Source: a virus
Virus record (IMG/VR): IMGVR_UViG_3300036939_000021
Location: 1-64,000 of that record
Strand: one strand, 5' to 3'
DNA length: 64,000 nucleotides
Under the pieces are notes generated by a model that was given only the letters and a program-made list of their open reading frames with translations, was not told the DNA's origin and did not search any database. Position numbers and translations under genes: made by a program. Below are positions 7,910 to 44,095 of the stretch, in pieces; the first letter of the stretch is position 1; each line of letters begins with the position of its first letter.

Positions 7910-9157
7910 GTGAAACGAAAAGGAGGCAAAAAACAATGCTGGTTCTCGAATATAAAATCAAAGGCAAGCCACAGCAATACAAAGCTATTGATGAAGCTAT
8001 CCGAACAGTGCAGTTCATTCGAAATAAAGCCATTCGCTATTGGATGGATGCACCCAAAGACGCCAAAATCAATCGGTTTACCTTGAATAAATATTCGACC
8101 GATCTACGCAACGAGTTCTCCTTTGTCAAAGATCTTAACTCAATGGCGGTGCAAGCTGCTGCCGAACGTGGGTGGCTTGCAATTTCTCGGTTTTACGACA
8201 ATTGTAAGTCCAAAAAATCAGGTAAAAAAGGTTTTCCTCGCTTCCAGAAAGACAACCGCTCAGTAGAGTACAAAACAAGCGGATGGTCGCTTCATCCTAC
8301 AAAGCGACGGATTATCATCACCGATAAAAAGGGGATTGGTGAACTCAAGCTTTTGGGTAAGTGGGATATTCATCAATATCCTGTAAAGTCCATTAAGCGA
8401 GTTCGTTTAGTCCGTCGTGCCGATGGATATTACTGTCAGTTTGCTGTTGATGTTGACTGCATTAATATTCAGCCAAAAACAGGTCAAGAAATTGGATTAG
8501 ACGTAGGACTAGAATCGTTTTACACAGATTCAAACGGACATCAAGAGCCTAATCCAAAGTTCTTGAAAAAAGCTGAATCTAATATAAAACAGACTCAACG
8601 TCGCATCTACAAAAAAGTTAAAGGTTCAACAAGACGCCGTAAGGCAAGAGCTAGATATTCCAAGAAACACTTGAGAGTAAATAGGCAACGTACCGAACAC
8701 GCTAAGAGACTAGCGCGTCACGTTTGCAAGTCTAATGACTTAGTAGCCTATGAAGACTTAAGGGTAGCGAATTTGCTTAAAAACCACTGTTTAGCTAAGT
8801 CAATTTCTGATGCTAGCTGGTATCAGTTCAGGCAGTGGATAGAGTATTTTGCTACTAAGTTTGGAAGATTAGCTGTTGCCGTTCCACCCCAGTACACCTC
8901 TCAGGAGTGCAGTCAGTGTAAGGCGATAGTCAAAAAATCCCTTAGCACTAGAACTCACGTTTGCTCGTGTGGATTAATTCTGCAAAGAGACTGGAATGCG
9001 GCAATCAATATTTTGCGTAAGGCAAAATCTAGGGGAGGGCATCCCCAAAGTAACGCTAACGGAGTTGGAGCCTCTACGCTACTTGGGGAAACCCTGGTAG
9101 AGCAAGTTCTGACGATGAAGTTAGAATCCCACCCGCTTTAAGCCGTGGGAGTGTCAA
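7897..9157 (+). mobile_element. IS200/IS605-family tnpB-only element
   Basis: Inserted after TTGAA (7892-7896); right end hairpin TCCCAC..GTGGGA followed by GTGTCAA (ends 9157); higher GC than the flanks. Confidence 0.85.
7936..9141 (+). CDS. tnpB: RNA-guided endonuclease TnpB
   Basis: IGLDVG (RuvC-I), YEDL (RuvC-II), CxxC..CxC zinc finger, RDWNAAINIL (RuvC-III); AGGAGG RBS at 7921. Confidence 0.95.
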   Translation: MLVLEYKIKGKPQQYKAIDEAIRTVQFIRNKAIRYWMDAPKDAKINRFTLNKYSTDLRNEFSFVKDLNSMAVQAAAERGWLAISRFYDNCKSKKSGKKGFPRFQKDNRSVEYKTSGWSLHPTKRRIIITDKKGIGELKLLGKWDIHQYPVKSIKRVRLVRRADGYYCQFAVDVDCINIQPKTGQEIGLDVGLESFYTDSNGHQEPNPKFLKKAESNIKQTQRRIYKKVKGSTRRRKARARYSKKHLRVNRQRTEHAKRLARHVCKSNDLVAYEDLRVANLLKNHCLAKSISDASWYQFRQWIEYFATKFGRLAVAVPPQYTSQECSQCKAIVKKSLSTRTHVCSCGLILQRDWNAAINILRKAKSRGGHPQSNANGVGASTLLGETLVEQVLTMKLESHPL

Positions 9158-9332
9158 TGAAATATCCTCTGGCATCGTTAGGATTTCAGAGGTTACGAAA
9201 TCATAAACGAAATTCAAAAGCTCTTTTAGTTGGTCAAACTAAATTAGCTTTAAAGAAGGCTTAAAAATCTTTAAAGAAAAAACACCTTATGGAATCATAA
9301 AGATTATTCCATAGGGTGTTCTGCTATCACTC

Positions 9333-9920: not shown

Positions 9921-10027
9921 AAAATTTTTGAATAAAATTTGAGACACTTCTAGGGAATCATAAGAGGTGTTTTTTATTGACATCTATTAAAATCTGGCAT
10001 ATACTAGAATAGTTGTTAGATAGTTTT

Positions 10028-10654
10028 ATGATGCTAAATTCTAATTTTGATAAAACACTTGAAAATTATATTGAATCTATTGTAGAAATTAATGAAAAAT
10101 TTAATATACATGAATCACATAGATTTACTATTTATTGTTATGGATTGATTGAAGAAGTAGGGGAATTGAGCGGTAAAATAAAACGAGAAATTAGAGATGA
10201 TAAAGATTTATCATCTGATATTCATAAAGAGATTGGCGATATTATTGCTTATTTAATGTTAATTGTACGATGGACACATTTAGAATATTTTTCAACAAAA
10301 AATATTGCAACTTTAATATTTGATGATTTACCGGGTAATATCCAACAATTTAAAAATGAACAAAATAAAAGTGATATACCTATTTTATATATTTTATCGA
10401 AATTAGATGTAGAAAAATCATTTTTAATTTATCTCCTTATGCAATATTCAGAAGCTGATCGAAAAGCACATAAGGGTACAGCAATTTTAGTTGCAACTAG
10501 AGTTCGACAGATGGCAGCAAAGATATTAGCTTATTTAGAAGTGATAGCTTTAAATTTTGATAGTAATCTTGAACAGTGTTTAGATTTAAATATTCAGAAA
10601 CTACAGAGCCGATTCTCTAAAGGTACTTTACATGGTTCGGGTGATAATCGTTAA
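10028..10654 (+). CDS. mazG: MazG-like nucleotide pyrophosphohydrolase (long form)
   Basis: GLIEEVGEL..KIKR.IRD..KEIGDII; C-terminal N..KLQSR...G.LHGSGDNR. Confidence 0.8.
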   Translation: MMLNSNFDKTLENYIESIVEINEKFNIHESHRFTIYCYGLIEEVGELSGKIKREIRDDKDLSSDIHKEIGDIIAYLMLIVRWTHLEYFSTKNIATLIFDDLPGNIQQFKNEQNKSDIPILYILSKLDVEKSFLIYLLMQYSEADRKAHKGTAILVATRVRQMAAKILAYLEVIALNFDSNLEQCLDLNIQKLQSRFSKGTLHGSGDNR

Positions 10655-10790
10655 GACTTATTAGGACAACAGAGAACACACGGAATAATAGATTATTCCA
10701 TGTGTTCTTTTTTATTTGAGAAATTTATATAAACTATTGGCATCTATTAGAAAATAGCATATACTAAAAGAGTACTTAACGACAAAGCAT

Positions 10791-11045
10791 ATGAACTTAT
10801 CCCAGAGTCTTGTAGATTTATTATCAGAATATTCGGAGAAAAATTTAGAACAACTTTTAGAAAAAGGACAAGATAACTTGCATCAATGTTTAAGACAATT
10901 ACCGATAGAGCCGGAAGTTGGAACTAAAGAATATAAAATACGTAGACAAGTTTTATTGAGTCTTTATCATCTTACTTGTGCTATCGGAGAACATGAAGGT
11001 GAGGAAGAAGACGATAATAGAGGCTCAGGACGATTTTTATATTAA
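10791..11045 (+). CDS. 84-aa acidic protein ending in RGSGR (PatS/HetN/PatX-type pentapeptide)
   Basis: EEEDDNRGSGRFLY*; RGSGR at 11019-11033; promoter TTGGCA(10737)-N17-TATACT. ORF confident, function inferred. Confidence 0.7.
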   Translation: MNLSQSLVDLLSEYSEKNLEQLLEKGQDNLHQCLRQLPIEPEVGTKEYKIRRQVLLSLYHLTCAIGEHEGEEEDDNRGSGRFLY

Positions 11046-11052
11046 AAATATT

Positions 11053-11199
11053 ATGTTTAGTAGAAAAGAAAAAATTTGTCTGTTTTTATCTGTTTTATTT
11101 GTTTCGTTAGGTTTGAGCTATGATTTTGAGTCTTTAGAGCAATCGGTTTTTATTTTGATTGGGTTAGCATTATTCGCTGTTTTTGAAAGTATTAATTAA
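11053..11199 (+). CDS. small two-TM membrane protein
   Basis: Two hydrophobic stretches; ATG 11053 follows the previous stop. Confidence 0.6.
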   Translation: MFSRKEKICLFLSVLFVSLGLSYDFESLEQSVFILIGLALFAVFESIN

Positions 11200-11211
11200 G
11201 GAGTAATAGAC

Positions 11212-11547
11212 ATGGAATTAAGTGATTATCAAGTACAATCTATATCTACGGCTATTTATCCAGGGAAGAAAACTATTAACGGTTTAGCTTATGCGACTTT
11301 AGGCTTAGTTGGGGAAGCAGGAGAAGTTGCAGAAAAAGTTAAAAAGATTCTTAGAGATAAGCAAGGTATTTTAGATGCTGAAACTAAGCAAGCTTTGCAA
11401 AAAGAATTAGGTGATGTTTTATGGTATCTAGCTGCTATAGCTACAGAACTTGATTTATCTTTAGATGATGTGGCTTTAATGAATCAGCAAAAATTACAAT
11501 CACGAAAATTAAGAAATGCTTTAAGCGGTAATGGAGATAACCGTTAA
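11212..11547 (+). CDS. mazG: MazG-like nucleotide pyrophosphohydrolase
   Basis: LGLVGEAGEVAEKVKKILRD..KELGDVLWY..N..KLQSR..GNGDNR. Confidence 0.92.
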   Translation: MELSDYQVQSISTAIYPGKKTINGLAYATLGLVGEAGEVAEKVKKILRDKQGILDAETKQALQKELGDVLWYLAAIATELDLSLDDVALMNQQKLQSRKLRNALSGNGDNR

Positions 11548-11617
11548 AATATAAAAGCATATCGTAGTACTACTGACCTGATTTCTATTGGAATTGGGTC
11601 TTTTTTATTGACACGAC

Positions 11618-11933: not shown

Positions 11934-12597
11934 CAACACTCAACATATCTTATCTACTTTAGACATGATTCCAGTCGTACTTCCTCATACCCAATCTTGG
12001 ATTACATACCCAATTTATTAGGATTTTCTCGCCTACAAATCTCATATCTCTTTTAGGAGATACCCCATTTGCTATTAAAAACCTACGGAAAATAACACAT
12101 GGAATTATCCAATTGAGACAACACGCATCTTTGGCTTTGACCTCGACTTTGACCCTAGCACAGCCCAGAAAGCGACCGGAACCCCGAAACCTCTTTCAGA
12201 GATGCCGTTTTTGCGGTTTTTTCGATTTTTGCGAAAATTTCAAATACACCGATTTTTAAAATTGGAAAACAAAAGAAAAATATATGTTTTTTCATATAGC
12301 ATGGTACGCTGTTATATGCAATATTTCGTGTTTTTTATATTATTTTATTGTATTTTGATATAATTTACGAAATTTCCGGAACAAATAAAATATCTGCTTT
12401 TTATTAGTCTTAAAAATTTTTATTACATATTTTAACTAGTAAATTATAGTATAATTTTACTTTCCACACCATATAAATATTATAATTAAGATATACTTAC
12501 CTGTTATTAACCCGGTCTATTTTGTTAATATAGGTTGGCATACCCCTAGGCAGTATGTTATATTAGATTCAGTCATCCAGAATTAGAGATTAAAATA

Positions 12598-43850: not shown

Positions 43851-43909
43851 TTTAATAATAAAAATTAGGGAGCATCTACTATTAAAAGTGAACACCCAAT
43901 GGAATAATC

Positions 43910-44095
43910 ATAAAATTTGCAAAATTAGCTCTAGGTTTAACTCTTACGTTTTCTATCATTGTTGGTAATATTTATATTGTTGTAAAACCTTTGATAGCTT
44001 CTGAGACTCAAAGTTAGTGTAAAAAAGAAAAATCTAGTCCTTGTCCTGGTATGGGTAGGAGAGAGTACAATAGAATGATGTTTTCTTTTTCTTAG
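43910..44095 (+). pseudogene. decayed PatX-like secreted peptide gene
   Basis: (ATA)KFAKLALGLTLTFSIIVGNIYIVVKPLIASETQS*CKKEKSSPCPGMGRREY; no ATG, TAG at 44015. Confidence 0.4.

Follow-up and report, generated by a model that had tools for sequence, protein, structure and literature searches.

Can a phage gene mimic the short peptides that inhibit HetR in filamentous cyanobacteria? The action of RG(S/T)GR peptides on HetR is a textbook case of bacterial activator-inhibitor patterning, and the question is raised here by a small viral gene, gp84, whose product ends in an acidic run (residues 69-75), an asparagine, the pentapeptide RGSGR and three further residues before the stop. A preliminary description of the locus proposed that gp84 is an early gene encoding a candidate viral mimic of PatS, HetN and PatX, which the phage may use to suppress heterocyst differentiation. 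We have examined the gene, its relatives, its likely hosts and the readings that compete with this proposal.

The gene lies in the first 64 kb (64,000 nucleotides, hereafter the window) of the 105,884-bp virus record IMGVR_UViG_3300036939_000021, which is complete, carrying direct terminal repeats and reaching a CheckV completeness of 100%. The phage has a GC content of 32.6% and encodes a large terminase, tail proteins and HNH endonucleases. It is far from all cultured phages, its terminase being at best 26-28% identical to that of any of them. A biocrust metagenome is the only public run containing the region and is probably the source sample; no RNA run is listed that contains it.

A small gene in a transcription unit of its own

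The gp84 protein has a mass of 9.8 kDa and a pI of 4.82 (see Table 1 for the coordinates of this and all other features). Its CAI in frame is 0.668, compared with 0.690 (sd 0.078) for the long genes of the phage and with 0.38 and 0.54 in the other frames, and an independent Logan contig from the same sample is identical over 10600-11300 at a depth of 21. The small acidic protein ending near RGSGR that the preliminary description had read from the window thus stands.

Table 1. Positions of the gp84 unit and related features. Coordinates refer to the window, except for the G537 protein.
Feature	Position	Strand	Basis
IS200/605-type tnpB element, main host lead, outside the gp84 unit	7920..9158	+	Pfam OrfB_IS605 and Cas12f1-like TNB domain
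Hairpin and T-run ending the upstream MazG-like gene and isolating the unit	10674..10717	+	read by eye
Sigma-70-type promoter, TTGGCA, 17 nt, TATACT	10737..10765	+	score 10/12
Extended promoter word sites	1145, 3150, 9977, 10737, 11666, 21282, 23038 and two weaker	+, for the seven named	
gp84 gene, 84-aa acidic protein, stop codon included	10791..11045	+	ORF, 2 homologues, codon use
Helical body of gp84, residues 1-68 (helices 3-13, 16-36, 46-68)	10791..10994	+	AlphaFold2 on alignment A1
Disordered C-terminal tail of gp84, residues 69-84	10995..11042	+	predicted, pLDDT
RGSGR pentapeptide, residues 77-81	11019..11033	+	invariant in 3/3 family members
Small hydrophobic ORF, 48 aa, between gp84 and MazG, same unit	11053..11199	+	ORF
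MazG-type nucleotide pyrophosphohydrolase, last gene of the unit	11212..11547	+	Pfam PF03819 1.2e-11; phrog_229 6e-38
Intrinsic terminator closing the unit, 11-pair stem then T-run	11575..11600	+	consensus scan
G537 87-aa protein ending in acidic run, RGTGR and stop	L295:1255-1515, about 93516-93776		viral record scan

The promoter of its own that had been assigned to gp84 was likewise confirmed: besides the match of the site itself, the extended promoter word occurs in 9 copies in the window, a number that 0 of 100 shuffles reached, and nearly all nine sites lie on the + strand of the left arm. This word, TTGACATCTAnTAnAAA, spans the -35 element and the spacer, and in the left arm it stands in front of many small units of a single gene. 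From the host-type promoter we infer early expression of gp84.

Upstream of the promoter, a hairpin at 10674-10707 with perfect inverted arms flanks the iterated word of the phage, GGAATAAT, and is followed by a T-run; it is not listed by the consensus terminator scan. The octamer GGAATMAT, which forms the tip of this hairpin, occurs 115 times in the whole phage genome, where about 12 occurrences are expected. Downstream of gp84, the 48-aa ORF gave just a sub-threshold Pfam match to a membrane segment and could be assigned to no family. To judge from these signals, gp84, the 48-aa ORF and the MazG gene form one promoter-to-terminator unit. The cyanophage literature regards mazG as a gene that may change the physiology of the host, and we count this context in favour of HetR targeting. 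On either side of gp84 stands a MazG-type pyrophosphatase gene (10013-10654 and 11212-11547), of which the former is a long divergent form of 213 aa.

With regard to chance, the preliminary description had put the probability of one RGSGR in this much protein at about 1%. We obtained an expectation of 0.015 occurrences in the phage ORFs of at least 60 aa (30,002 aa, with the phage's own amino-acid composition), in agreement with that estimate. For the near-C-terminal position the estimate is conservative, because only 8e-4 phage ORFs are expected to carry RG[ST]GR among their final 8 residues.

The AlphaFold2 model of gp84 has a mean pLDDT of 75.5, with blocks at 89-93 between residues 21 and 60 and values below 50 for residues 72-76 and 78-84. 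No signal peptide is apparent: the model shows the N-terminus, which is polar and acidic, as helical. When the model was compared with the PDB using Foldseek, no match was found at E <= 0.001, and a search of the ESM Atlas returned generic helical hairpins only. At the level of sequence, gp84 is without a Pfam, PHROG or NCBIfam match; an NblA-like identity was considered and dropped for want of a Pfam match. We therefore picture gp84 as a phage-private, cytoplasmic small helical scaffold whose flexible acidic tail would serve to present a short linear motif.

RGSGR is the invariant part of a very small family

The preliminary description had named conservation of RGSGR among homologues as a check on its proposal. 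An exhaustive HMMER search of 1.84 billion representative proteins recovered exactly 2 homologues (E = 1e-5 and 5e-4). These proteins, P0002 and P0003, are 88 and 70 aa long, share 38-47% identity with gp84 and derive from short Logan contigs of 1,562 and 4,514 bp. Both retain the motif and terminate exactly in an acidic run, RGSGR and the stop, with Asp at position -1 of the motif where gp84 has Asn. In the alignment of the three sequences (A1), E69, E72, E73 and R77-R81 are invariant, the RGSGR columns being conserved 5/5 compared with a mean column identity of 58%; the other conserved blocks lie within the helices. Taking homology and codon use together, gp84 is a real gene and RGSGR is the invariant feature of its family.

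The family has three members, which we count against a role in targeting HetR. A word-index protein search returned gp84 alone and then the same three proteins, and neither pattern and tblastn searches of IMG/VR, GTDB genomes and JGI metagenomes nor a tblastn search of the phage collection found relatives of gp84. The loci beside MazG homologues in 81 viral contigs hold no member of the gp84 family; RGSGR strings noted near those loci proved to be an alternative frame of mazG itself and were discarded.

A second phage carries an RGTGR tail on a different scaffold

Via the MazG gene of the gp84 phage, three viral records were reached and scanned for the motif. One of them, IMGVR_UViG_3300018719_000003 (G537), is a complete phage of 107,653 bp with terminal repeats, and its MazG is 65% identical to the one encoded at 11212-11547. 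G537 encodes an 87-aa protein with an RGTGR tail (Table 1), whose gene lies about 1.5 kb downstream of a phage sigma-factor gene and adjoins Cro/C1-type HTH genes. The RGTGR tail is kept in 6 of the 7 members of this family. The exception is P0009, its most divergent member (from a 796-bp contig), which is without the motif and which we count against the HetR reading. Serine or threonine at the third position is exactly the variation found among known HetR inhibitors (PMC7761841).

The 87-aa protein is predicted to consist of helices throughout, the last of which frays at its end, where the motif lies. Profile comparison of the two families aligns only 8 tail columns, and the two phages have about 15 weak protein matches in common. 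As far as these comparisons reach, the two tails reflect either convergence or a common origin so distant that it escapes detection. Neither family turned up when 401 and 351 sampled cyanobacterial genomes were searched with profiles in six frames, which argues that they are not captured host genes.

HIP1 octamer abundance is a hallmark of cyanobacterial genomes. G537 contains 129 HIP1 words compared with 1.1 expected, and the candidate-host loci described below about one per 1-2 kb. The gp84 phage contains 0 copies, an absence that weighs little because its GC content predicts no more than 0.15 copies. GGAATMAT is not enriched in G537 (5 occurrences, 8 expected).

Among the ORFs of G537, 1e-3 are expected to end in RG[ST]GR, and the preceding acidic run lowers this expectation by a further factor of about 0.03. 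Four acidic residues followed by RGSGR occur in 92 IMG/VR stretches, all in contigs of at least 50% GC; the cases near a stop were rejected as antisense or out-of-frame readings within large ORFs. The stricter string E-E-D-RG(S/T)GR-stop has 4 occurrences in all of IMG/VR, with a real gene only in G537, and E-E-E-D-RGSGR-stop in JGI metagenomes retrieved junk frames only. By the patterns scanned, other real viral genes with such tails are absent from the 2.9 million IMG/VR contigs. The cultured Nodularia phage kac65v151 (146,618 bp), which infects a heterocystous host, has no RG[ST]GR in six frames; the trait is therefore rare rather than universal.

gp84 is distinct from the known HetR ligands

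PatS and the gp84 family have in common an RGSGR at or near the C-terminus behind acidic residues. PatS is a peptide of 13-17 aa with Asp-Glu before the motif, whereas gp84 has 84 aa and a predicted folded helical body, with Asn at position -1 and the motif followed by three residues; outside the tail the two are unrelated in sequence. PatS is encoded on a hetR-bearing cyanobacterial chromosome and gp84 by a phage; the expected target would be the same, namely the cleft of the HetR hood (PMC4649674).

PatX (NCBIfam NF047413) likewise carries RG(S/T)GR near its C-terminus and, at 88 aa in Kastovskya, is of similar size. In contrast to gp84, which has neither a signal peptide nor a Pro-rich region and places an acidic run before the motif, PatX is exported, contains a Pro-rich region and has His before the motif. 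Its gene lies immediately upstream of hetR, while the neighbours of gp84 are MazG-type genes. The NF047413 model, which scored positive controls from Kastovskya and Coleofasciculus at 38 and 43.3 bits, did not match P0001-P0004 at its cut-off of 30 bits.

HetN is a protein of about 287 aa with a short-chain dehydrogenase/reductase (SDR) fold, whereas gp84 has no Pfam domain and, in its model, forms a bundle of three helices followed by a tail. The internal ERGSGR of HetN works inside the larger protein, behind an acidic residue (PMC7761841). HetL is reported to engage the PatS-binding face of HetR as a whole protein (PMC7476756), as is proposed here for gp84; it consists of pentapeptide repeats, lacks RGSGR and protects HetR, whereas RG(S/T)GR peptides inhibit it. 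On these comparisons gp84 is not PatS, PatX or HetN, and it displays a known inhibitor motif on a virus-private scaffold. The idea of a viral mimic is therefore upheld in part: the display of the motif and the second, RGTGR-bearing family speak for it, and descent from PatS, PatX or HetN finds no homology to rest on.

Most candidate host genomes carry hetR

The main host lead is a tnpB element outside the gp84 unit. Its closest DNA matches are in Kastovskya adunca (85.7% identity), Aphanothece sp. CMT-3BRIN-NPC111 (84.8%) and Aerosakkonema (83.5%), and its protein is 88-90% identical to the copies in these three genomes. The next-closest copies are found in Allocoleopsis and Coleofasciculus, and Nostocales copies are 70-76% identical in protein. 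The second tnpB of the phage is only about 55% identical to candidate-host copies, and neither the tnpB nor the sigma factor of G537 helped to pin down the host of that phage. As a separate observation, the 7920-9158 element is solo and GC-richer, and its last ~160 nt are 79% identical to Nodularia phage transposase genes.

Following the host via tnpB and checking for hetR, as the preliminary description had suggested, gave a mixed outcome. hetR is present in 4 of the 5 candidate genomes, and it was not found, by family and protein query, in the Aphanothece-labelled genome. That genome, a MAG of uncertain completeness, is one of the two closest, its IS copy falling barely short of the identity seen in the nearest filamentous genome. 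On the genomic evidence, the host of the gp84 phage likely carries hetR. The phage genome itself is without hetR, and a search across it for the HetR-binding palindrome found none, which we count against HetR targeting.

In all four hetR-bearing candidates, HetR residues R223, E253, E254, D256, D270 and D278 are invariant; these are the residues that contact PatS6 in the crystal structure (PMC4649674). A patX gene lies just upstream of hetR in 3 of the 4, two of them confirmed by the curated model. The tail of candidate-host PatX reads HRGSGR plus 4-6 further residues; in these organisms, then, a few residues past the motif, such as gp84 has, occur natively. In Kastovskya adunca, PatX (L084:321-587) contains the motif region twice, a degenerate HRGSDR preceding the intact HRGSGR by ~27 residues, and both copies are followed by the same three residues.

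We take the nearest host candidates to be non-heterocystous genera. Since the best leads are non-heterocystous filamentous biocrust cyanobacteria, the suppression of heterocysts put forward in the preliminary description is not what we would expect, and any effect would concern the HetR regulon rather than heterocyst formation. In the non-heterocystous Leptolyngbya BL0902, deletion of hetR changes 993 genes, and the role played by HetR and by PatX in non-heterocystous filaments is still termed a mystery (PMC11298460).

Discussion

That gp84 targets HetR through its RGSGR tail is, on the sequence evidence, a proposition we hold to be evenly balanced between true and false. If true, host RNA polymerase would transcribe gp84 from the sigma-70-type promoter together with the small membrane ORF and MazG, and the tail of the protein, intact or trimmed, would insert in the lateral cleft of HetR's hood domain, with Glu253, Asp270 and Asp278 holding both arginines of RG(S/T)GR. 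As with the PatS, PatX and HetN peptides, HetR would be freed from DNA, its turnover may rise, and the HetR regulon of the infected cell would be shut down. The binding of gp84 to HetR, its effect on HetR, its timing and its benefit to the phage are what we infer.

PatS6 and the PatX hexapeptide bind the HetR hood cleft and release HetR from DNA (PMC4649674, PMC12756182). It has been argued that the free hexapeptide is the active species; the C-terminal carboxylate of PatS6 lies near R223, and PatS6 lengthened at its N-terminus would, by prediction, collide with the hood (PMC4649674). When full-length PatX lacking the signal peptide was paired with HetR in a two-hybrid assay, no signal was seen, and the hexapeptide bound at 88 nM (PMC12756182). 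Having 76 residues before the motif and three after it, gp84 may therefore bind weakly unless processed; it may need trimming, rely on high expression or bind differently. By analogy with the peptides, P0002 and P0003, whose chains stop with the motif, match the known geometry more closely than gp84. In a paper on patS minigenes, fusions carrying RGSGR were reportedly active.

Targeting of HetR has to be weighed against a less probable but quite conceivable explanation, in which the conserved acidic run and Arg-Gly-x-Gly-Arg tail serve a different partner and the likeness of the motif is coincidental. gp84 might then be one of the small acidic early proteins, for example a DNA mimic, an anti-defence protein or an anti-activator, which would suit a small, acidic, helical protein that belongs to no family and has no informative fold match. 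The host may be without HetR, one member of the G537 family does without the motif, and published results speak against binding by long forms that have not been processed (PMC4649674, PMC12756182), all of which is consistent with another partner. However, the coincidence would be needed twice, on unrelated scaffolds and both times in cyanobacteria-linked phages, with both tails placed C-terminally behind an acidic run and differing only by the S/T choice of HetR inhibitors, and the IMG/VR scans turned up no further real genes with tails of this kind. That the ORF is non-functional, or its motif a neutral accident, is scarcely credible: the tiny family is what could suggest it, yet the homologues share a conserved helical pattern, codon use is phage-typical in frame only, the gene has a dedicated promoter and terminator, and the chance expectations are 1e-3 or less.

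Two further explanations keep HetR as the target and change what gp84 does to it. gp84 could be a pro-peptide from which a protease of the host or of the phage frees a short RGSGR peptide that passes through septal junctions to neighbouring cells, so that the virus would determine how uninfected cells of the filament develop. Hexapeptides released by processing are the form in which the natural inhibitors act (PMC4649674, PMC12756182), the tail bearing the motif is predicted to be disordered and accessible to proteases, and two members of the family already end at the motif; still, we consider this unlikely, given that maturation of PatX by PatP needs export (PMC12756182) and gp84 has no signal peptide, and that the unit shows no link to a protease gene: the C39-like peptidase encoded at 9333-9920 matches an endolysin family. 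Very unlikely, in our view, is a HetL-like action, whereby gp84 occupies the PatS site without inactivating HetR, which would stay active despite the host peptides. A bulky body behind the motif could alter the outcome of binding, and HetL is reported to attach to HetR at the PatS interface and to shield it (PMC7476756; PMC12756182). Against this, binding of the RGSGR peptide itself triggers DNA release in the structure and in assays (PMC4649674), and gp84 has neither pentapeptide repeats nor any other resemblance to HetL.

Short-linear-motif mimicry is well known from viruses of eukaryotes, and inhibition of HetR by gp84 would extend it to phages. In agreement with the preliminary description, no paper on a phage-borne RG(S/T)GR protein was found in the literature searched; if the HetR reading is true, gp84 would be the first case described there of a virus imitating a bacterial morphogen. 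It would also offer a natural and genetically simple probe of HetR function in non-heterocystous hosts. Given that two unrelated scaffolds bear the same tail, the proposal is directly testable with two proteins and a few peptides. A broader scenario, which we regard as improbable, is that large cyanophages have repeatedly evolved private RG(S/T)GR scaffolds and that the trimmed peptide spreads via septal junctions and reprograms the filament. Were this the case, one infected cell could reset HetR-dependent development and stress responses throughout the filament, amounting to viral control of multicellular patterning.

Other motif-like strings in the window

A second RGSGR, followed by Phe-Leu as in gp84, can be read on the minus strand at 12166-12186. 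The string uses different codons at every variable position, having 13 of 21 bases in common with the gp84 copy, and lies within a 50-nt GC-rich island in an AT-rich intergenic stretch. A TGA stands three codons upstream of this RGSGR with no start codon between, and no ORF, Rfam hit, significant fold or host match was found for the string. A hypothetical +1 frameshift product was considered and set aside, as it matches neither PatX nor any Pfam family. By a rough estimate, the chance of such an RGSGR-Phe-Leu string is at most 1e-3. Elsewhere in the window, PGMGRR, a string that differs from RG(S/T)GR and gave us no grounds to suspect a connection with HetR, stands at 43892-44095 on the + strand, where the frames read a hydrophobic stretch, a stop and then the peptide bearing it.
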